From a virus: 10,775 nt of DNA. The position numbers and the translations under genes were made by a program. Shown piece after piece: positions 479 to 10,198 of this stretch. The notes beneath the pieces are model-generated. The model was not told where the DNA came from and did not search any database. It saw only the letters and a program-made list of their open reading frames with translations. The stretch's first letter is position 1; every line of letters starts with the position of its first letter. The stretch lies in UHGV virus genome UHGV-1753860, one strand, 5' to 3'.

Positions 479-844
479 TTATTGCGCTAATTCTTTTTCG
501 GCAGCAGCTTTTGTATACTCACATGCAAAACTCAGAATTTCGCTGCCGAGTGTTTTCGTTTCGTGATTACTGGACATATGTAATACCTGTGTTGCATGCA
601 ATAAATGATAAACATTTACCGCAAATGAATCAGGCTCCAGACAAATGCCTTCGTAATTATCTTGCTGTGAGGTTGTTTCTGTCATTGCTCCTGAAGTGCA
701 TGCGAGCCTGTTTTTGACAATTCTCTTTTCTCTAATCACTATATCGGCAACATCTATTGCCTTTACAACCTCCGGGAGAAGTTCCGGGTTTGTATAATCA
801 AAGTCATCAACATGGAGAACAGTTATGTTTTCGAACTTTTTCAT
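479..844 (-). CDS. Hypothetical protein, 121 aa, no motif I recognise; second gene of the leftward operon downstream of the repressor
   Basis: ORF in supplied track; minus-strand ATG at 844 preceded by GAGGAA Shine-Dalgarno; AT-rich relative to the replication genes; no obvious transmembrane segment or catalytic motif by eye. Confidence 0.6.
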   Translation of the reverse strand: MKKFENITVLHVDDFDYTNPELLPEVVKAIDVADIVIREKRIVKNRLACTSGAMTETTSQQDNYEGICLEPDSFAVNVYHLLHATQVLHMSSNHETKTLGSEILSFACEYTKAAAEKELAQ

Positions 845-972
845 GGCTTCCTCAGCTGACTTATATGTTCTGCTATATAGCGAGTCTCAGAAGTGTTTTC
901 ATATTGAGACTGTTTCCGCAATGATTGATAAAAATGTTCGCATGTACCTTGAAGGGCGAAGCGGCGATTATG

Positions 973-1476
973 TCACCATTGGTATTGGTTCTTCCGCAGA
1001 AGAGCTTCGCGAGATAAGGGGCAAACTTGTTGAGATGCGTCATGGTGTTGCTGCTCCTCACTTTTTGGTTGCTCCGGAGGAGTAACCTCACCAGTTAACA
1101 GCCACATCGGATCGCAGCCAAGAATATTTGCCAGTGGGATAAGCATACTGATAGTTGGTTCATACTCTCCGCTCTCCCACTGGATGATAATTTCTTCATC
1201 GAGATCGAGCAGCCTGGCGAGTTCGGCGGTTGTTAAGCCGCAGGCTTCGCGTTGGGTGCGAAGACGGTTGTTGATTGCAGAATTTTTGTTCTGTAAAAGC
1301 ATTGCTGACGATAGCTTTCTGGATATGCTATTTGTCATATCCCATGCCAGTCCTGCGCATGACTCTATATCGCTAGAGAGCGTAGCATCAGGTGTTGCTT
1401 TTGCTATTAGTGTAATGAGGCTGCCGAGGTTTTTCAGTTCTTCGAGACAGTCAAGAGTTGTAGCTTTATTGATCAT
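973..1476 (-). CDS. HTH-XRE family DNA-binding protein, 167 aa, with N-terminal extension of unknown function and a Pro/Glu/Gln-rich C-terminal tail
   Basis: Central segment RLRTQREACGLTTAELARLLDLDEEIIIQWESGEYEPTISMLIPLANILGCDPMWLL is a classic Cro/C1-type helix-turn-helix. Minus-strand ATG at 1476 with GAGG Shine-Dalgarno 10 nt upstream. First gene after the candidate leftward promoter. Confidence 0.8.
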   Translation of the reverse strand: MINKATTLDCLEELKNLGSLITLIAKATPDATLSSDIESCAGLAWDMTNSISRKLSSAMLLQNKNSAINNRLRTQREACGLTTAELARLLDLDEEIIIQWESGEYEPTISMLIPLANILGCDPMWLLTGEVTPPEQPKSEEQQHHDASQQVCPLSREALLRKNQYQW

Positions 1477-1481
1477 GAGAT

Positions 1482-1559
1482 GATACCTCAGTTACGAACT
1501 TTGTTTTATGGTAACTAAGGTATCAAGGCGTGGCAAGTGATTTTTGATACTTTGGTTTC
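1482..1559 (-). promoter_or_regulatory. oL-like operator cluster (three 14-bp sites) with candidate leftward promoter (pL-like)
   Basis: Sites GATACCTCAGTTAC (1482-1495), GTAACTAAGGTATC (1511-1524, inverted) and GATACTTTGGTTTC (1546-1559) share the motif found in the divergent region next to the repressor start; the third differs at one position from GATACTTTGGGTTC at 2285-2298. On the minus strand TTGCCA (1536-1531), 17-nt spacer, TACCAT (1513-1508) forms a sigma70-like promoter overlapping the middle site; the first site overlaps the ribosome-binding site of the 973-1476 gene. Confidence 0.55.
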
Positions 1560-2347: not shown

Positions 2348-2575
2348 ATGACCCTTTATGAAATATTAAAAATTCAATTTAAAACCAATGCCGCTATTGG
2401 TCGCAGGTTCCCAAAGAAAGGAAGGCCTCGTGGCAGTCAAGGTGTTGGAAAGTGGAAAACGCGAGGTGTTCCGGAGGATGTTGCCATTCTTTGTCATCTG
2501 GATCCGAGCATTCCATATACACACCCAAGTCTAGCGAATACAGAAGATGACAAGCCCACAGGAGACCAACAATGA
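2348..2575 (+). CDS. Small basic hypothetical protein (75 aa) in the position where cro is expected; coding status uncertain
   Basis: ORF in supplied track begins 18 nt after the last operator site and its stop overlaps the next start (ATGA at 2572-2575), but the Shine-Dalgarno is weak and I see no recognisable Cro-type HTH. Confidence 0.25.
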   Translation: MTLYEILKIQFKTNAAIGRRFPKKGRPRGSQGVGKWKTRGVPEDVAILCHLDPSIPYTHPSLANTEDDKPTGDQQ

Positions 2576-3279
2576 ACACCGCAATTTTTAACGGCAAAGC
2601 ATCCATGACCAGCGTTGAGATCGCAGAGCTGGTGGGAAGCCGACCAGATAGTGTTAAGAGAACTATTGAAACACTGGCTAAAAAGGGAATCATCCAATTT
2701 CCACAGACTGTGGAAATTGAGAATAAACAATCACTTGGGCCTCGCCGATTTTCTAGCGCGTATGTATTCGAAGGTGAACGAGGTAAGCGCGACAGCATCA
2801 TTGTCGTCGCACAGCTCTGTCCTGAATTCACAGCTCGCCTGGTAGATCGCTGGCGCGAACTGGAAGAACAGATCCGTAAGCCAATGAGCGAAATCGAAAT
2901 GGTTGCCGCGATGGCTCTTGAAGCCGTTCGCCAACAGAAACGGATCACTCAGGTGGAAGAAAAAGTCAGCCACGTTGCTGAAACAGTCGAGCAAATTAAA
3001 AAGGGCACTATTCGTGAGGGCTATGCCGGATATCGCCAACTGAAAGCAAAAACCGGTTTGTCAGATGATAAATGCCGCAATCTGGTGAACGCCTATCAAA
3101 TTCCTACAGACACACATGAGTTCATGACGCCGGACGGATTGTTGTCACGTCGCGCAATTGTTGCTGTGGAACCGTTTATGGCTGCTTTTTATCGGGTTAT
3201 GGAGGAAGCAGAACCGCGAGGGACTCGCTGGTATCACCCGAAAATGGGGTTATTTCAGGTTATTGGTTGGCAGCGGTGA
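2572..3279 (+). CDS. Rha-family (KilA-N clan) phage regulatory / antirepressor-like protein, 235 aa
   Basis: N-terminus NGKASMTSVEIAELVGSRPDSVKRTIETL and downstream RLVDRWRELEEQI fit the Rha-domain pattern as recalled (S.EIAEL.G.RHDNV.R.I, DRW.ELE). Strong AGGAGA Shine-Dalgarno 6 nt before ATG 2572. Confidence 0.75.
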   Translation: MNTAIFNGKASMTSVEIAELVGSRPDSVKRTIETLAKKGIIQFPQTVEIENKQSLGPRRFSSAYVFEGERGKRDSIIVVAQLCPEFTARLVDRWRELEEQIRKPMSEIEMVAAMALEAVRQQKRITQVEEKVSHVAETVEQIKKGTIREGYAGYRQLKAKTGLSDDKCRNLVNAYQIPTDTHEFMTPDGLLSRRAIVAVEPFMAAFYRVMEEAEPRGTRWYHPKMGLFQVIGWQR

Positions 3280-3687: not shown

Positions 3688-4050
3688 ATGGCTACTGTCC
3701 TAACTTCCCCATTCCTAAAAATCGAAGTCGTCAACGGCAAGGCCGTTATTTTCTCCCTGCATGTTGCCTGCCATTTCAAGCGCATGCACCAGAACATCGT
3801 TGACAAAATCGAGTATCTGAACTGCTCACGCGAGTTTTTTACCCGCAATTTCATACCGGGTACTTATCACATCTACGGTGACTCCCTGCGTGGTTATTAC
3901 ATCACCCTTGATGGTCTGATGATGCTTCAGCTTGGGTTAAGTCTGCGCACAATGCGGTACTACGAGAGCTGTATTGAAGCATTCCATGAGGCTGAAACCG
4001 TCCAGGGTCACTCCGCGTTCCGTCGTAATCAACGGGAGGTGCACCTATGA
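3688..4050 (+). CDS. Rha-family phage regulatory protein (short, about 120 aa, Rha domain only)
   Basis: MATVLTSPFLKIEVVNGKAVIFSLHVACHFKRMHQNIVDKIEYL fits the Rha N-terminal pattern. ATG 3688 has GGAGG 9 nt upstream. The supplied track extends the frame to a TTG at 3484, but that start has no ribosome-binding site. Confidence 0.75.
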   Translation: MATVLTSPFLKIEVVNGKAVIFSLHVACHFKRMHQNIVDKIEYLNCSREFFTRNFIPGTYHIYGDSLRGYYITLDGLMMLQLGLSLRTMRYYESCIEAFHEAETVQGHSAFRRNQREVHL

Positions 4051-4898
4051 TCCGCCACCAGCATATTGATTCTGCAATTTCGGGACGTTACACTGTCTCC
4101 GCACCTTATAAAGCGGGTGCCGGGCGTGGAAACCCGAAATTCAATATAGAGCACAACCGCGCTCATGCGGTTTTTTCGTGTCATGAGCATCGTTACGCCC
4201 AAATTATGGTGGGACGTGCAGGGCCAACTTCGGTTGGGCCGGGTTCTATGTTGACCGGTATTTCCACCCCTGTACGTCTCACCACCTATATGGTCGTGGA
4301 AAGCCTTGGTGGTGAGTTCATTGAATTCAACATAGGGGCTGTCACCATGACTACTCTCCCAGCCCAATCTCACCCTGAAATCACGATTATCAATGGTCGC
4401 GTTGTCACCACATCTCTTGCAGTAGCTAATTACTTTACTAAACGGCATGAGCGGGTTTTAGATAGAATTAGAAACCTCGAATGTTCCGCTGAATTTACTG
4501 AACACAATTTTGTGTTAAGTGAATACACCGACGCATCAGGCCGCAAACTCCCTTGTTACCAAATCACCCGCGACGGTTTTGCGTTTCTTGCCATGGGCTT
4601 CACTGGTAAACGTGCTGCCCAGTTCAAAGAGGCATACATCAACGCCTTTAACCAGATGGAGAAGAATTTATCTGGTGCTGACGCGGTTGATATGTCAGCT
4701 GTCGCACGAAACGCCAGAGGCGTATACCTGCATTTGCGTGAAATCCATCAAATCTGGACAAGCCAGCTTTATCCAATGCTTAAGGCCGTTGAATCTCCGC
4801 TGGCTAGCAAACTGTACGACCGTGTTGGTGATGCTGTTTTTGGCGCTGCACTTGTTGATTCCAGGCTGAATGGTTCTGACAAGGAGGTTCGCCCATGA
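4047..4898 (+). CDS. Rha-family phage regulatory protein; start ambiguous between ATG 4047 (long, 283 aa) and ATG 4347 (Rha domain at the N-terminus, 183 aa)
   Basis: Rha motif VVTTSLAVANYFTKRHERVLDRIRNLE begins about 10 residues after M4347, which fits the family architecture. ATG 4047 has a strong GGAGG 7 nt upstream and overlaps the previous stop (ATGA), and the frame is open throughout, so a long isoform or coupled leader translation cannot be excluded. The 4047-4346 stretch also holds the small-RNA module 2 signals. Confidence 0.7.
   Translation: MIRHQHIDSAISGRYTVSAPYKAGAGRGNPKFNIEHNRAHAVFSCHEHRYAQIMVGRAGPTSVGPGSMLTGISTPVRLTTYMVVESLGGEFIEFNIGAVTMTTLPAQSHPEITIINGRVVTTSLAVANYFTKRHERVLDRIRNLECSAEFTEHNFVLSEYTDASGRKLPCYQITRDGFAFLAMGFTGKRAAQFKEAYINAFNQMEKNLSGADAVDMSAVARNARGVYLHLREIHQIWTSQLYPMLKAVESPLASKLYDRVGDAVFGAALVDSRLNGSDKEVRP
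4066..4094 (+). promoter_or_regulatory. Candidate sigma70 promoter of small-RNA module 2
   Basis: TTGATT (4066-4071), 17-nt spacer, TACACT (4089-4094); paralogous to 3410-3438. Confidence 0.45.
4101..4176 (+). ncRNA. Candidate small RNA 2 (about 76 nt): same architecture as small RNA 1 but with seed UCAAUAUAG
   Basis: Predicted start G4101; hairpin CGGG/CCCG (4121-4136); seed TCAATATAG (4141-4149); terminator ACCGC-GCTCAT-GCGGT followed by T6 (4156-4176). Seed pairs with CTATGTTGA at 4246-4254 (8 Watson-Crick pairs plus one G-U) and matches TCAACATAG at 4327-4335 next to the ribosome-binding site of the Rha start at 4347. Confidence 0.45.
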
Positions 4899-5089
4899 TT
4901 AGTTACGAAATCATCATCTCCACTACGGAATACAGAAACGATGTATCAGTTCGCACGGATGTATCTGTCTGGCACCGTCGCTATAAATCCAGAAAAACAG
5001 CGGAACTGAAAGCGGCAGAGATGTGTGAAACCATCTCAATGAAAGGTAGCCCGGTTAAATACGTAACTACGGCGGAGGTGCGTCCATGA
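4895..5089 (+). CDS. Hypothetical small protein (64 aa)
   Basis: ATG 4895 overlaps the previous stop (ATGA); GGAGG 7 nt upstream; no recognisable motif. Confidence 0.5.
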   Translation: MISYEIIISTTEYRNDVSVRTDVSVWHRRYKSRKTAELKAAEMCETISMKGSPVKYVTTAEVRP

Positions 5090-5310
5090 TCCGCCACATC
5101 GTTAATTCCCTGTATCACCGATACAACCGTTGCCCCCGTGTGGGGCAGTGGTTCGCCACCAGCAACGGTCACGTTCTGCGGGTTTGCCTAGTCAACGCTG
5201 AAAGCCAGAAAGTCGTGTGCGAACTACAGGGGCGTAGCTACACCATCAGTTACCCTCTGGCGGTATTTCTGTCTGGAAAAATGTTTAAGCGTCTGGGAGG
5301 TGTGGCGTGA
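5086..5310 (+). CDS. Hypothetical small protein (74 aa)
   Basis: ATG 5086 overlaps the previous stop; GGAGG 7 nt upstream; begins MIRH, as does the 4047 ORF. Confidence 0.5.
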   Translation: MIRHIVNSLYHRYNRCPRVGQWFATSNGHVLRVCLVNAESQKVVCELQGRSYTISYPLAVFLSGKMFKRLGGVA

Positions 5311-5606
5311 ACTGTTTTCAGTTTGTGTGCGGATGTGCTTTCGATAACCCGATTCAGCGCCTGATTATGTTGCGTGTTTTGATGTCGGGTTCTTCAGACG
5401 GTGAAGGCGAGAGAGTTATTGATCATCAGGTGCTTGCTGATTTCTGCTGTTGTTCTAAGCAAGCGATATTCAGGGAAACCCTGGCACTGGAAAGAGCTGG
5501 TTATCTTCATATCCGAAAAATTGCAACGCTTACTATTGATGCAAAAGCCAGACTACAACCTGCGCGTGGCTACACAATTCTCATGCCGCGGAAGGAGGTT
5601 GTATGA
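5307..5606 (+). CDS. Hypothetical protein (99 aa), possibly a winged-helix DNA-binding protein
   Basis: GTG start overlapping the previous stop with GGAGG upstream; the segment VIDHQVLADFCCCSKQAIFRETLALERAGYLHIRK looks like an HTH or winged-helix recognition unit. Weak inference. Confidence 0.45.
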   Translation: MNCFQFVCGCAFDNPIQRLIMLRVLMSGSSDGEGERVIDHQVLADFCCCSKQAIFRETLALERAGYLHIRKIATLTIDAKARLQPARGYTILMPRKEVV

Positions 5607-6595
5607 GCCGTTACGCCCCCACACCGGAAGTTATGGCTATTGGTCAAATTAATATTTCCGGCAATGTTACACCTGCGAACTGGTGGAAATATATTCGACT
5701 ACCCAGTGGGCGTCCGGATGCGACGGCTATCGCTCTGCTTTCAGAGATCGTTTACTGGTACCGCCCGACAGAGGTCAGGGATGAGCACACCGGAGCGTTG
5801 CTGGGATATCGCAAGCGTTTTCAGGGCGACAAACTGCAAAGAAGCTACCAGGCGTTTGCTGAGCAGTTTGGTTTCGGGAAAAGGGAAACCGCAGATGCGC
5901 TGAAGCGTCTGCGCGATGCAGGGTTTATTACTCTGGATTTACGCACGGTGGAAATGCTCGATGGGGTGAAATGCAGCAATATTTTGTTTGTCGGGATCAA
6001 CCCACAGGCAATTGCGGCCATCACCACACCTTCTTCTGTTTCGCCAGAAAGTAACAGCAATAATGCAATCAGCGATACAGCTATTACGTTAAAACGGAAC
6101 ACCCCCCGACGTCATAACGGAACAGGGGATACGCCGAATGTTGATACAAATACAGAGATTACTACAGAGATTACAACGGAGACTAAAAACACTATTGATG
6201 CATCCGCTGACGCGTCTGCGCCAGCGCGTTCTGCCCGACAGGAATATTCACCGGAATTTGAACAGGCCTGGCAGGAATATCCCAAACGTGCTGGTGGCAA
6301 TTCCAAGTCAGCAGCCTTCAAAGCCTGGAAAGCCCGTATCAGGGAGGGAATAAAACCGGAGACCATGCTTGATGGCGTGAAGCGGTATGCCGCCTGGGTA
6401 CGTGCTACAGGAAATACCGGCACACAGTTCGTGAAGCAGGCTGCGACGTTCTTTGGACCCGATCGTCACTTCGAAGATTACTGGCAACAGCCAGCCGCTC
6501 ACGGAGGTGGGCGACAGCGACAGGTCGATGTCCTGGCTGGCCTGGGAGCCATGTCTGACAAATTCGGTAAATCCAGTAACAAATTGACATTCTGA
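5603..6595 (+). CDS. Phage replication initiation protein (O-like, partner of the DnaC-type loader); family assignment tentative
   Basis: 330-aa ORF with GGAGG ribosome-binding site, directly upstream of and translationally coupled to the DnaC-like and DnaB-like genes. Two-domain layout with a Thr/Ser/Asp-rich low-complexity linker whose DNA carries iteron-like repeats. Confidence 0.65.
   Translation: MSRYAPTPEVMAIGQINISGNVTPANWWKYIRLPSGRPDATAIALLSEIVYWYRPTEVRDEHTGALLGYRKRFQGDKLQRSYQAFAEQFGFGKRETADALKRLRDAGFITLDLRTVEMLDGVKCSNILFVGINPQAIAAITTPSSVSPESNSNNAISDTAITLKRNTPRRHNGTGDTPNVDTNTEITTEITTETKNTIDASADASAPARSARQEYSPEFEQAWQEYPKRAGGNSKSAAFKAWKARIREGIKPETMLDGVKRYAAWVRATGNTGTQFVKQAATFFGPDRHFEDYWQQPAAHGGGRQRQVDVLAGLGAMSDKFGKSSNKLTF
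6152..6185. repeat. Iteron-like direct repeats (2.5 copies of a 12-bp unit) inside the initiator gene; candidate origin element
   Basis: ACAGAGATTACT (6152-6163), ACAGAGATTACA (6164-6175), ACGGAGACTA (6176-6185), followed by a GC-rich near-palindrome around GACGCGTC. Lambdoid origins commonly sit inside the initiator gene. Confidence 0.35.
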
Positions 6596-6605
6596 GGTGA
6601 CAGCG

Positions 6606-7505
6606 ATGATGACGATTGACCAACGTGAGAAACAAACAAGACTACAGGCGCGAATGGATGAGTTACGGGCAGAAATGGATGAGTTACGGGCAGAGATTGC
6701 ATTTGCTCAGAAGGGCGAAAAGCCATGGCCTTATCGTTCCTGCCTGATGCGTGAAGGTCACGGATATTGCGAAAAACACGGTAAATATCGTACGCATATA
6801 CTGGTGTGGATCGATCGTAATGGCGAGGACAGAGAAAAAATTTCATGCTGCCCTGACTGCTTGATCGCTGAGGCCAGTGATTTGACCATGGAACTGTCGT
6901 CCCTCAAGGCGGAAGAACTGACTGATAACGCCGGAATTGCTCTGCGTTTTCGGGACTGCGAGTTTGATAATTATCTGGAGGTTAATCCTGACGCAGCCAG
7001 AAATCTTGCGGCCTGTCGCCGCTATGCGGAGAACTGGCCAGATATGCTGGAGAACGGTACCAGTCTTGTTATGACCGGCAGTTGCGGTACCGGGAAAAAT
7101 CATCTGGCGGTATCAATGGCAAAACACATCATCCGTAACTATCTGGCCAGTGTGGAGATCACCGACGTGATGCGCCTTACCCGGGCTGTGAAAAACTGCT
7201 GGCGGAATGACAGTGAAAAAACAGCGGATGACGTCATTGAGCATTATGCGTCACTGGATTTGCTGATTGTCGACGAAGTCGGCGTTCAGTTTGGCAGTGC
7301 GGCTGAAATGGCCATTTTGCAGGAAATTATCAATGCCCGGTATGAGGGTATTTTGCCAACTATCCTGATCAGCAACCTTTCACCGGAAGAATTGTGGGCG
7401 TTCATCAGTCCCCGGATTGCCGACAGGATCACCGATGGCGGGCGCAACTGGTTGTCGTTTAACTGGCCCAGCTACCGTTCTCGTATCGGAGGTGTTGCCG
7501 CATGA
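6606..7505 (+). CDS. DnaC-type (IstB-like AAA+) replicative helicase loader
   Basis: Walker A LVMTGSCGTGKNHLAVSMA resembles E. coli DnaC GKPGTGKNHLAAAI as recalled; Walker B LLIVDEVG; Cys/His cluster near the N-terminus. Start set at ATG 6606 (GAGGTG upstream) rather than the GTG at 6597 in the track. Confidence 0.88.
   Translation: MMTIDQREKQTRLQARMDELRAEMDELRAEIAFAQKGEKPWPYRSCLMREGHGYCEKHGKYRTHILVWIDRNGEDREKISCCPDCLIAEASDLTMELSSLKAEELTDNAGIALRFRDCEFDNYLEVNPDAARNLAACRRYAENWPDMLENGTSLVMTGSCGTGKNHLAVSMAKHIIRNYLASVEITDVMRLTRAVKNCWRNDSEKTADDVIEHYASLDLLIVDEVGVQFGSAAEMAILQEIINARYEGILPTILISNLSPEELWAFISPRIADRITDGGRNWLSFNWPSYRSRIGGVAA
6654..6695 (+). repeat. Perfect-to-near-perfect 21-bp tandem duplication inside the helicase-loader coding sequence
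   Basis: ATGGATGAGTTACGGGCAGAA (6654-6674) is followed by ATGGATGAGTTACGGGCAGAG (6675-6695); in frame, it encodes MDELRAE twice. Confidence 0.9.
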
Positions 7506-8902
7506 CCAGCCAGAACACCCCGGCATGGCGTAACGATGACCTGGAAGGCGCTGTCATCGGTGCGTTTTTTCTGCGTGGGGCCGATCCGGAAGTGATGGAT
7601 ATTCTGGCCACACTTCCGGCGGATGTATTTTTTGTGCGTCAGTACCGGGATATTTACGCGGGGATTTGCAGACAGGCTCGCATATCCGGCGTCATTGACC
7701 CCGTACTGCTGTGCAATGAGATGCCGGAACTTGCCCCGGTGATTACCGACACCGGACGCAAAACCTGGGTGAAGTCTTCACTGGAGCACTATGTCGCAGC
7801 GTTGCGGCGCAATGCCGCACTGCGCGATGCAGAAAAAACACTGACTGAAGCATTACAGAATTTACGTGATGCGTATACCTGTGAAGCAGCCGAGGATGCC
7901 CTGAAGGATGTGCAGAACATGATGGCCTCACTGTCGACCGGAAAGGGCGTCATTCAGCCGGTTCACATTGATGATGTCCTTCCGGAAGTGGTCGACCGTG
8001 TTGAATGCCGCAATCAGGGACTGGAGAAATCCAGGGCACTGATGACCGGTATTGATGAACTGGACGCAAAAACGGGCGGTATGGAGCCCGGAGACCTGGT
8101 ATTCATTGCCGCCCGTCCTTCGATGGGGAAAACCGAACTTGCGCTGGACATCATCGACAAGGTGACTGAGCAGGGGCATGGCGTGCTTCTGTTCACCATG
8201 GAGATGGCGAACATCCAGATTGGTGAACGTATGGTGTCTGCTGCCGGTGGAATGCCGGTATCCCGTCTTAAGTCTGTTGCCAGTTTTGAAGATGAAGACT
8301 GGGCGCGTTTCTCGCAGGGCGTGGGACGAATGACGGGGCGTAATATCTGGATGGTGGATCAGGCAAACCTGACCATTGATGAGATATGTGCAACCACGAA
8401 GCACCACCGGATGAAACACCCGGAAACGGCGCTGGTGGTGGTCGATTACCTCGGTCTGATTAAAACCCGCAGCACGGGGCGTCACGACCTTGCTGTGGGG
8501 GAAATCTCAAAGGGACTTAAAAGCCTGGCAAAATCCGGCGGTTTCCCGCTGATTGCTCTGAGCCAGCTCTCCCGAGGCGTGGAATCCAGACCCAATAAAC
8601 GTCCCATGAACTCAGACCTGAAAAACTCCGGGGAAATAGAGGCTGATGCCGACATCATTCTGATGCTTTACAGGGATGAGGTGTATAACCCGGATACACA
8701 GGCCAGAGGCATAGCAGAAATCAACATCACGAAACAGCGTAATGGCACACTCGGGACCATTTACCGGCGTTTTCATAACGGACATTTTCTGCCTGTGGAC
8801 CAGGAGAGTGCCCGGGTTCTTTCCACACCCATGACGCCGGGCAATCCGCGCAGATACAGCAATTACCGCATGTCGGGCAGTAAAACGGAGCGTTTATTTT
8901 GA
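7502..8902 (+). CDS. Replicative DNA helicase, DnaB family
   Basis: Walker A GDLVFIAARPSMGKTELAL; Walker B VVVDYLGLI; the hallmark stretch IALSQLSRGVESRPNKRPMNSDLKNSGEIEADADIILMLYRDEVYNP. ATG 7502 overlaps the upstream stop; GGAGG 9 nt upstream. Confidence 0.93.
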   Translation: MTSQNTPAWRNDDLEGAVIGAFFLRGADPEVMDILATLPADVFFVRQYRDIYAGICRQARISGVIDPVLLCNEMPELAPVITDTGRKTWVKSSLEHYVAALRRNAALRDAEKTLTEALQNLRDAYTCEAAEDALKDVQNMMASLSTGKGVIQPVHIDDVLPEVVDRVECRNQGLEKSRALMTGIDELDAKTGGMEPGDLVFIAARPSMGKTELALDIIDKVTEQGHGVLLFTMEMANIQIGERMVSAAGGMPVSRLKSVASFEDEDWARFSQGVGRMTGRNIWMVDQANLTIDEICATTKHHRMKHPETALVVVDYLGLIKTRSTGRHDLAVGEISKGLKSLAKSGGFPLIALSQLSRGVESRPNKRPMNSDLKNSGEIEADADIILMLYRDEVYNPDTQARGIAEINITKQRNGTLGTIYRRFHNGHFLPVDQESARVLSTPMTPGNPRRYSNYRMSGSKTERLF

Positions 8903-9156
8903 ACAACAGAACAATCACTGTTTCACCGGAACAACTTCGTCGGCAGGCGCAGGAGATGCTTCGTTGTGCTGAACAGATGGAAAAAACGAGCGTGAAAAAA
9001 GATACGCTCCGCAAGCAGCTTACTCCGGCGCTTCGTGATCTGCTGCAGGCAAAACACCGCACACAAAAGGCGGTGGATGAGCTGGTGGATTGCGTGGCGG
9101 AACTGGAAGGACAGGTAAGCCAGTTTGAAACGCTGGTGAAGGAGTTTACTGCGTGA
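8899..9156 (+). CDS. Hypothetical small protein (85 aa), predicted coiled-coil
   Basis: TTG start overlapping the helicase stop with GGAG 8 nt upstream; first in-frame ATG is at 8956; charged heptad-like sequence; no recognisable motif. Confidence 0.45.
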   Translation: MNNRTITVSPEQLRRQAQEMLRCAEQMEKTSVKKDTLRKQLTPALRDLLQAKHRTQKAVDELVDCVAELEGQVSQFETLVKEFTA

Positions 9157-9202
9157 TGGCTGAATTTTTTTCTCCTGCGTTCATGCAATACCGTTCGCTG
9201 AG

Positions 9203-10198
9203 GTGACCGTGAGAGCACTGCTGACCCCTGAAATTGCCCCGCGTATGGGGATCGTCTTGTTCAGACCCGGTTCAGAGCTGATGCCCCTGTTTATGCAGGG
9301 GCGTGTCCTGCTGGAGCCTGAGCCGGAACGTTATTCATCTTTTGCCAGTGGTGCCGTTCCGGCAGCATCACAACCGCTGGCGGATGATCCTGCCGTTCGG
9401 GCCGTGTTCCGCCATGAGGCGGTGATCCGTCGTGCTGGTGGCGTGGAATGCCTTGAGAGCTGGTTACTTCGTGAAAAAGGCTGCCAGTGGCCTCATTCCG
9501 GATGGCACAGCGAGAACATGACCACAATGCGACACGCGCCGGGCACAATCCGTCTGTGCTGGCACTGCGATAACCTGCTTCGCGATCAGTTCACGGAACG
9601 TCTGGAATCAATGGCAACGGATAACTGTGCCCGCTGGGTGTTGTCCGTAGTCCGTCGTGATCTCGGTTTTGATGACAGCCACGTTGTGACAATGCCGGAA
9701 CTGTGCTGGTGGCTGATTCGTAATGATCTGGCGGATGCCTTATCGGAAAGTGCAGCCCGTAAGGCACTGAGATTACCGAAGCCTGTTGTGCCGTCTGTCA
9801 CCCGGGAAAGTGACCTTGTGCCTTCGGTTCCTGCCACCAGCATCATCCAGGATAAAGCGAAAAAGGTGCTGGCGCTGAAAGTGGATCCGGAGTCGCCGGA
9901 GTCTTTTATGTTACGCCCAAAACGTCGCCGCTGGGTTAATGAAAAGTACACGCGCTGGGTTAAGACACAGCCGTGTGCATGTTGTGGAAAGCCCGCTGAT
10001 GATCCCCACCACCTGATAGGTCACGGTCAGGGTGGAATGGGAACAAAAGCGCATGACCTTTTTGTGTTGCCTTTGTGCAGAAAACACCATGACGAACTGC
10101 ATGCGGATACCGTGGCATTTGAAGAGAAGTATGGCTCCCAACTGGAGCTGATATTTCGTTTTATCGATCGCGCGCTGGCGATTGGTGTGCTGTCCTGA
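9203..10198 (+). CDS. Prophage nin-region protein with C-terminal Cys/His-rich domain (DUF968-like as recalled)
   Basis: C-terminus CACCGKPADDPHHLIGHGQGGMGTKAHDLFVLPLCRKHHDELH carries a CxxC..HH..PLC..HH pattern typical of a domain found between replication genes and Q in enterobacterial prophages. GTG start with AGGTG upstream; exact start uncertain. Confidence 0.65.
   Translation: MTVRALLTPEIAPRMGIVLFRPGSELMPLFMQGRVLLEPEPERYSSFASGAVPAASQPLADDPAVRAVFRHEAVIRRAGGVECLESWLLREKGCQWPHSGWHSENMTTMRHAPGTIRLCWHCDNLLRDQFTERLESMATDNCARWVLSVVRRDLGFDDSHVVTMPELCWWLIRNDLADALSESAARKALRLPKPVVPSVTRESDLVPSVPATSIIQDKAKKVLALKVDPESPESFMLRPKRRRWVNEKYTRWVKTQPCACCGKPADDPHHLIGHGQGGMGTKAHDLFVLPLCRKHHDELHADTVAFEEKYGSQLELIFRFIDRALAIGVLS

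Follow-up and report, generated by a model that had tools for sequence, protein, structure and literature searches.

Gene organization left of the repressor

The window, by which we mean the whole 10,775-nt stretch of DNA that was analyzed (UHGV-1753860), represents the early region of an Escherichia coli lambdoid prophage. On the minus strand, a cI-type repressor gene (1580-2236) is followed by ORF1 (973-1476) and then by ORF2 (479-844), with both ORFs present exactly where the initial annotation had placed them. The DNA of this cassette is 100% identical to strain JKHS016 and ~95% identical to genes L08-L11 of the Stx2e phage phiP27, and a literature search retrieved no paper on phiP27 L08 or L10. 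The earlier description of a two-gene cassette was correct in that both named genes are real, but incomplete, as a third real gene occupies 825-1085 on the plus strand; the spacing between ORF1 and ORF2 in the window is 128 nt, with this antisense gene spanning it. The cassette is indeed more AT-rich than the replication genes, as had been noted (GC content of 0.436 for 479-1476 vs 0.526 for 5603-8902). Low GC extends beyond the cassette to the entire left 2.6 kb, including cI (0.423), while inside ORF1 it is restricted to the segment encoding the N-terminal domain (0.414, vs 0.511 for the HTH core). An Rfam scan of positions 1-2700 at E-values up to 1 returned no match.

The ORF1/ORF2 pair is conserved in prophages of E. 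coli, Salmonella, and Citrobacter, and the module was found in 316-326 of 5426 complete E. coli genomes (about 6%), with the HTH core of ORF1 present in 316 of the 5426 and given a generic annotation every time. Carriers include Stx1, Stx2a, Stx2d, and Stx2e converting phages. A survey of the genes occupying this slot in related prophages, as the initial annotation had proposed, identified a regulator and ORF2 in all 84 loci, and the order cI, regulator, ORF2 was the same in all three genera and whichever of the six unrelated repressor alleles was present. The two genes overlap by 4 nt in 5 of the 84 loci (e.g., L053/L054/L068 and L088), and are separated by just 5 nt in Stx1_14040 and 1 nt in phi467. 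The ORF1/ORF2 pair is, in short, a real, conserved, and uncharacterized unit.

Predicted operators and a candidate pL promoter precede ORF1

The motif GWWAC-N4-GTATC, with at most one mismatch allowed, occurs 12 times in the window compared to 1.5 expected, a count that none of 200 shuffles reached, and 9 of the 12 matches fall in the intergenic gaps on either side of cI, where they make up six sites. Three copies (2261-2274, 2285-2298, and 2317-2330) lie in the cI-cro gap, and three copies of the same motif (1482-1495, 1511-1524, and 1546-1559) all fall in the 103 bp that separate the cI stop (1580) from the ORF1 start (1476). By analogy with the lambda paradigm, these would correspond to oR and oL, respectively. 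A consensus scan also detected a pL-like promoter (TTGCCA, 17 nt, TACCAT; 1508-1536, minus strand) that overlaps the operators and is directed at ORF1, with both the promoter and the operator assignments predicted from sequence alone. The five other immunity types with this regulator likewise have strong promoter-like sites in the gap between it and the repressor gene. Given that the oL copies and the pL-like promoter precede ORF1, ORF1 is predicted to be the first gene of a CI-repressed pL operon, which supports the earlier proposal that a leftward operon starts at ORF1.

In lambda, rexAB is located between cI and oL and is made in the lysogen, while the position beyond oL/pL, which ORF1 holds here, is that of N. 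The cassette was initially likened to rexAB on the basis of its slot, and like rexAB and BstA it lies directly downstream of the repressor gene, is low in GC, and has a mosaic distribution. However, it is not located between cI and oL but beyond oL/pL, and it shares no homology with rexAB. The intervening oL/pL separates ORF1 from cI, so the pair would not be a lysogen-expressed passenger of cI, and the defense-slot analogy, which had been the main reason for interest in the locus, does not apply.

On the other side of cI, the 75-aa gene in the cro position (2348-2575) matched only phrog_4749, for which the function is unknown, and no Pfam HTH model. It is followed by Rha-family paralogues (2572-3279 and 4047-4898) and an ash-family gene, with no cII homologue.

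ORF1 combines a nearly invariant HTH core with an immunity-linked N-terminal domain

ORF1 encodes a 167-aa XRE/Cro-C1 regulator consisting of an N-terminal domain (aa 1-66; 1279-1476), an HTH (aa 72-126; 1099-1263), and a tail (aa 130-167; 976-1089). The central Cro/C1-type HTH described in the initial annotation was confirmed by a match to Pfam PF01381 HTH_3 (residues 72-126, profile positions 1-55, E = 3.8e-11, 43.3 bits vs a cut-off of 23), and the N-terminal ~66-70 aa, previously regarded as unrecognized, matched no family. Over its full length, the protein matches phrog_4739 (function unknown; E = 3.6e-99), and it also matches PHROG 4836 (E = 1.3e-40), which carries the label 'CII-like regulator'. 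Nearly all of the 164 proteins in the ORF1 family come from Escherichia, Shigella, and Salmonella, and some members of the regulator family contain two tandem HTH domains.

The closest solved HTH domains are the N-terminal domain of the P22 C2 repressor (E = 3.2e-6), followed by 434 repressor/Cro, and the best NCBIfam subfamily is DicA (NF007257; E = 4.3e-13, HTH part only). Membership in the DicA subfamily was rejected, with a score of 49.2 bits against a cut-off of 101 bits. ORF1 resembles P22 C2, 434 repressor/Cro, and DicA (Qin prophage) in its HTH, including the W-L-L-T-G motif at the domain end. Unlike these proteins, however, its DNA-binding domain is central rather than N-terminal, and it possesses neither an S24 peptidase nor the C-terminal domain of DicA; its gene is predicted to be the first of pL rather than the immunity repressor. 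The N-terminus is acidic and hydrophobic, with a pI of 4.7, and its sequence suggests two amphipathic stretches. Searches of Pfam and NCBIfam at E-values up to 1 returned neither the Phage_CII family nor the N antiterminator family for ORF1, and the arginine-rich N-terminal motif of N antiterminators is absent.

Among the surveyed loci, the HTH core (LRTQREACGLTTAELARLLDLDEEIIIQWESGEYEPTISMLIPLANILGCDPMWLLTG) is nearly invariant, while at least six unrelated types of N-terminal domain (A-F) are found upstream of it. In each of 83 loci, the type of N-terminal domain agrees with the neighboring cI allele. The allele in the window, cI1, which encodes a repressor with HTH_3 and Peptidase_S24 domains, travels with type A (49 loci), cI2 with B (24), cI3 with C (6), cI4 with D (2), cI5 with F (1), and cI6 with E (1). 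Both Stx1_14040 and L005 obey this linkage as well; Stx1_14040 had been considered as an exception, but it fits. Comparison of these loci indicates that the mosaic boundary of the immunity module cuts the regulator gene at the junction between the N-terminal domain and the HTH. The linkage may reflect a functional tie between the N-terminal domain and the immunity proteins, but it may also represent plain physical linkage, given that there is no internal homology permitting crossover.

The Pro/Glu/Gln-rich tail noted in the initial annotation is present, but most likely does not form a domain with a function of its own. In a set of 80 related IMG/VR loci, the long tail occurs only where the plus-strand gene is adjacent, and where that gene is missing or incomplete, the regulator stops ten residues past the HTH (138- or 153-aa forms). 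In ASU11, stops are present in the tail frame while the plus-strand frame is intact. Read-through of ORF1 into the strand antisense to the plus-strand gene therefore seems the best explanation for the tail.

A conserved gene lies antisense between ORF1 and ORF2

The plus-strand gene (825-1085) encodes an 86-aa acidic alpha/beta protein. It is convergent with ORF1, overlapping the 3' end of that gene by 113 nt, and head-to-head with ORF2, of which it overlaps the first 20 nt. A GGAG sequence (814-817) is present 7 nt ahead of its ATG. Comparison of homologous loci yielded pN/pS values of 0.19-0.28 in the frame of this gene, whereas the two remaining frames of the same strand gave about 0.8-2.3. 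The protein matches phrog_6104 (E = 1.4e-49, 80 of 80 profile positions) and contains the conserved motif of that superfamily, VLx[WY]SxSQxxFH[IV]ET..N..DY. The same PHROG was recovered with all 56 relatives tested, none of which matched a Pfam family. Homologues are found in E. coli, E. albertii, Salmonella, and Citrobacter, and the gene is real by each of these measures. PGAP leaves it unannotated in L001 (NZ_CP147059; 9287-9573) and likewise in other genomes.

An AF2 model of the 86-aa protein had a mean pLDDT of 79, with the core near 90 and agreement among all five models. No fold match was detected in the PDB, and the best hit of a BFVD fold search with this model had an E-value of 0.04. 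A profile search with the family retrieved 372 clusters at 50% identity, so the gene gives access to a large set of small proteins without functional or structural precedent. Two members of the family are notable for their architecture. In P0192 (L095, 2771-3268), a phrog_6104-type small domain is fused to a C-terminal XRE HTH, with an integrase and an IS91-type transposase as neighbors, and P0255 contains two copies of the small domain in tandem. Distant relatives are found on short contigs, in co-directional and unrelated neighborhoods, and a tblastn search of phage records with the distant members returned only the same E. coli phages.

A candidate promoter for the plus-strand gene (TTGACA at 714-719, 17 nt, CACTAT at 737-742) is located inside the N-terminal coding region of ORF2. 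Its putative -35 element is kept in all eight sequences compared, which come from three genera, but this conservation is confounded with that of the KNR/ADIVI codons of ORF2.

The plus-strand protein is 92-100% identical beside five unrelated repressor alleles, including non-S24 repressors, and 76% identical beside the sixth. The gene itself is missing or truncated in 27 of the 84 loci. In 21 of the 84 (e.g., L006, L015, and L069, as well as phiP27 [L002], at about 5085-5575), its 3' two-thirds are swapped for ~450 bp of unrelated DNA, leaving a 575-bp gap between the regulator and ORF2 and a 50-aa stump of the gene. The gap between the regulator and ORF2 is thus a hot spot for insertion or replacement.

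ORF2 is related to the N-terminal domains of sister regulators

The 121-aa protein encoded by ORF2 begins with a beta-alpha-beta-beta unit (aa 1-46; 707-844). A disordered linker (aa 49-69) joins this unit to a two-helix hairpin (aa 71-120; 485-634). The hairpin was modeled with a pLDDT of about 90 and the N-terminal unit with 60-75. In agreement with the initial report that no motif could be placed in this protein, there was no match in Pfam, NCBIfam, or PADLOC; its full-length match is phrog_5451 (function unknown; E = 1.7e-83). An AbrB/MazE-like fold for the N-terminal unit was considered because of its topology and rejected (hhalign probability of 0.5% against six AbrB-family sequences).

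Support for the reading frame differed between the two halves of the gene. The C-terminal half displayed an excess of third-position changes (codon-position counts of 9/6/21). Among close relatives, counts were too sparse for the N-terminus of ORF2 and for the plus-strand ORF, so more divergent loci were added to the comparison. With these included, the N-terminal 53 codons had a pN/pS of about 0.6 in all frames, indicating no frame-specific purifying selection, and the segment at 686-824 (codons 8-46), in which the DNA is highly conserved in three genera, likewise had values of about 0.6 in all six frames. The missing frame-specific selection in codons 8-46 may be due to overlap with the candidate promoter of the plus-strand gene, which suggests that 686-824 is under overlapping constraints, both as coding sequence and as the candidate promoter/5' UTR of that gene.

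The PGAP/RefSeq call for ORF2 is only 68 aa long, starting at M54 (WP_000141093.1; in L001 [NZ_CP147059], 9080-9286). The 121-aa form, with the N-terminal pattern ITVLH..ADIVI..KNR, is kept in three genera, and at some loci its start codon overlaps the stop of the regulator gene, implying that the 68-aa call is too short. As a consequence of this short call, and of the omission of the antisense gene, ORF2 and the plus-strand protein are under-represented in protein databases.

An HMM of ORF2 matched at least 58 sister regulators, always at their N-termini and in types B, C, and F (iE of 1e-10 to 1e-6). The ORF2 hairpin is 43% identical to the type-B N-terminal domain (BLASTP E = 2e-10), ORF2 matched ASU11 gp50 with an E-value of 6e-5, and phrog_4836 matches ORF1 and ORF2 in different parts of the profile. 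These similarities indicate that the ORF2 hairpin is a paralogue of the N-terminal domains of sister regulators of types B, C, and F. For the type-A domain of the window itself, comparison with the ORF2-type hairpin profile gave an hhalign probability of 0.3%, and with a BLASTP E-value of 0.57, direct paralogy between ORF1 and ORF2 in the window was rejected.

In phi467 and about 20 Stx phages, the partner consists of the hairpin only (63-68 aa) and is encoded 1-5 nt after the regulator. ORF2 is 93-100% identical beside regulators of types A, B, and D, and neither ORF2 nor the plus-strand gene co-varies with immunity type. Downstream of ORF2, a 41-aa ORF (159-284) corresponds to the C-terminal portion of phrog_340 (E = 9.8e-14, profile positions 17-56 of 85); this small early gene has either been truncated or been assigned the wrong start.

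A model for the module and its alternatives

Based on the data presented above, the reading that we favor, although tentatively, is that the three genes constitute a conserved early-left regulatory module of phiP27-like/lambdoid enterobacterial prophages, comprising an early regulator, a hairpin partner that would act on it much as SinI acts on SinR, and a gene in antisense orientation that is active when pL is off. Upon the lifting of CI repression, whether by infection or induction, pL would transcribe ORF1 and ORF2. The invariant HTH of ORF1 might then bind a conserved DNA target, while its N-terminal domain could oligomerize or dock. The hairpin of ORF2 would pack against a partner that bears a hairpin of its own, most plausibly the regulator, to give a helical bundle, and might thereby tune or antagonize the regulator. 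The plus-strand gene, which is read against pL, is predicted to be on in the lysogen, where pL is silent, and could be shut down by convergent transcription at induction.

There is precedent for such an arrangement. In SinR/SinI, the hairpins of the two proteins interlock as a four-helix bundle, which abolishes DNA binding (PMC3163267), and in arbitrium phages AimX blocks AimC oligomerization (bioRxiv 10.1101/2025.11.23.689978). Like SinR/SinI of B. subtilis and AimC/AimX, the module appears to place a Cro/C1-type HTH regulator with a helical domain beside a small protein bearing a paralogous hairpin. It differs in that its putative helical domain precedes the HTH, while that of SinR follows it, there is no sequence homology with SinR/SinI beyond the HTH, and the partner, at 121 aa, carries an N-terminal unit that SinI lacks. 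Moreover, paralogy is restricted to types B, C, and F, excluding the type A of the window, and the partner shows no co-variation with hairpin type. The weakest links in the favored model are accordingly that homology between the type-A domain and ORF2 was not detected, that there is no co-variation, and that no DNA target was found. The second of these counts against the model, since a specific SinI-like mimic would be expected to co-vary with the type of N-terminal domain. As for the target, comparison of six divergent pL regions for an operator shared by the invariant HTH revealed no motif, just A/T-rich k-mers. The 'bully phage' mechanism described in the literature proved to be Cro and is not relevant.

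It is possible, though unlikely, that ORF1 instead acts as a CII-like lysogeny-establishment factor, expressed from pL to activate synthesis of the repressor and integrase in the manner of lambda CII or YdaT, with ORF2 being either an accessory protein (CIII-like) or an unrelated early gene. YdaT is a non-homologous functional equivalent of CII (PMC9986795), and in the window Rha, ash, and Rha genes are found to the right of cro in place of a cII homologue. The label of PHROG 4836, the annotation of the ASU11 homologue as 'putative CII repressor', and the tandem HTH domains of some family members are also consistent with this role. However, these labels are annotation only and no match to Pfam Phage_CII was found, the gene is on the pL side rather than the pR side, and the HTH is invariant even though the cI-proximal DNA that it would target differs wholly among immunity types, with no common motif.

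A more elaborate scheme, which we regard as rather improbable, would make the module a second control layer of the lambdoid lysis-lysogeny switch. Here, the swappable N-terminal domain would make an immunity-specific contact with the cognate CI/Cro, the hairpin partner would act by titration, and the small protein of novel fold, expressed in the lysogen, would be toggled against pL through transcription that is convergent and overlapping. Such a contact, if it exists, would explain why the N-terminal domain travels with the cI allele in every locus.

The locus also bears some resemblance to the induction modules formed by a transcription factor and a small ORF (TF-smORF), which are defined by logic rather than sequence (Silpe et al. 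2023; PMC10432266). In this case, ORF1 would activate the counter-oriented gene at 825-1085, whose product would inactivate the repressor and drive or lock in lysis. As in VqmA-Phi/Qtip, TF72/smORF72, and XRE-LuxR/smORF (PMC10432266), a transcription factor, here of XRE type, lies beside the repressor gene together with a counter-oriented, unannotated small ORF without domain matches, and the components are modular and diverse in sequence. The P0192 fusion also ties the small-protein family to XRE regulators. We nevertheless consider this role quite unlikely. In the described modules, the transcription factor and smORF are divergent from a shared control region (PMC10432266), whereas ORF1 and the plus-strand gene are convergent with overlapping 3' ends, and it is ORF2 that is the head-to-head neighbor. 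The described modules are carried by linear plasmid-like phages, in contrast with the integrating lambdoid prophages here. ORF1 would also be under CI control and, being itself behind CI operators, would not provide an independent sensory input. A repressor-specific antirepressor would not be predicted to remain near-identical beside unrelated repressors, as the small protein does, nor does it fit that the small gene is lost or truncated in 27 of the 84 loci while the regulator-ORF2 pair persists in all, or that distant relatives of the small protein occupy unrelated, co-directional contexts.

Finally, a toxin-antitoxin, abortive-infection, or exclusion cassette in the rex slot, with ORF1 as the HTH antitoxin or regulator and ORF2 as the effector, is very improbable: although the neighborhood of prophage repressors is a known hot spot for defense genes such as BstA (PMC8585504), and the HTH-first two-gene layout, translational coupling in some loci, low GC, mosaic distribution, and weak HTH-only similarity of ORF1 to RmrA, CapH, and antitoxin models would fit, the cassette is outside the cI transcription unit and behind oL/pL, 128 nt with an antisense gene separate the two genes in the window, and ORF2 is an acidic, soluble hairpin protein, often of 63-68 aa, that is paralogous to regulator N-terminal domains. 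The regulator-effector or toxin-antitoxin-like pairing suggested in the initial annotation was accordingly not borne out as a defense system, with searches of Pfam, NCBIfam, and PADLOC revealing no toxin, effector, defense, N, or CII homology. In PADLOC-DB v2, ORF1 had matches in the HTH region only (RmrA, CapH, and HTH_VI) while ORF2 and the plus-strand protein had none (best E = 0.03), and no toxin fold or toxin family was found for ORF2. Most likely, the pair represents a variant of familiar regulatory schemes and not a new defense system.

The more surprising features of the locus are an unannotated antisense gene belonging to a large superfamily and an immunity boundary that runs through the domain junction of a regulator. 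The favored module sits behind pL, at an intensively studied control point of temperate phages, and yet its three proteins are without a name, with PGAP calling one at about half its length and skipping another entirely. The combination of an invariant HTH, an immunity-linked N-terminal domain, and a paralogous free hairpin provides a natural experiment on the evolution of specificity between regulators and their partners. Any role of the module in the timing of induction, if confirmed, would bear on Shiga-toxin release.

Repeats in the replication genes

Two repeats were observed in the replication region. A 12-nt tandem repeat, TACAGAGATTAC, is present in 2.7 copies at 6151-6182, within a gene for a 330-aa protein (5603-6595), where it encodes TEITTEITTE. 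By analogy with lambda, this repeat may represent origin iterons in an O-like initiator gene. At 6653-6694, a perfect 21-nt tandem duplication near the 5' end of a DnaC-like loader gene (6597-7505) doubles the peptide MDELRAE.
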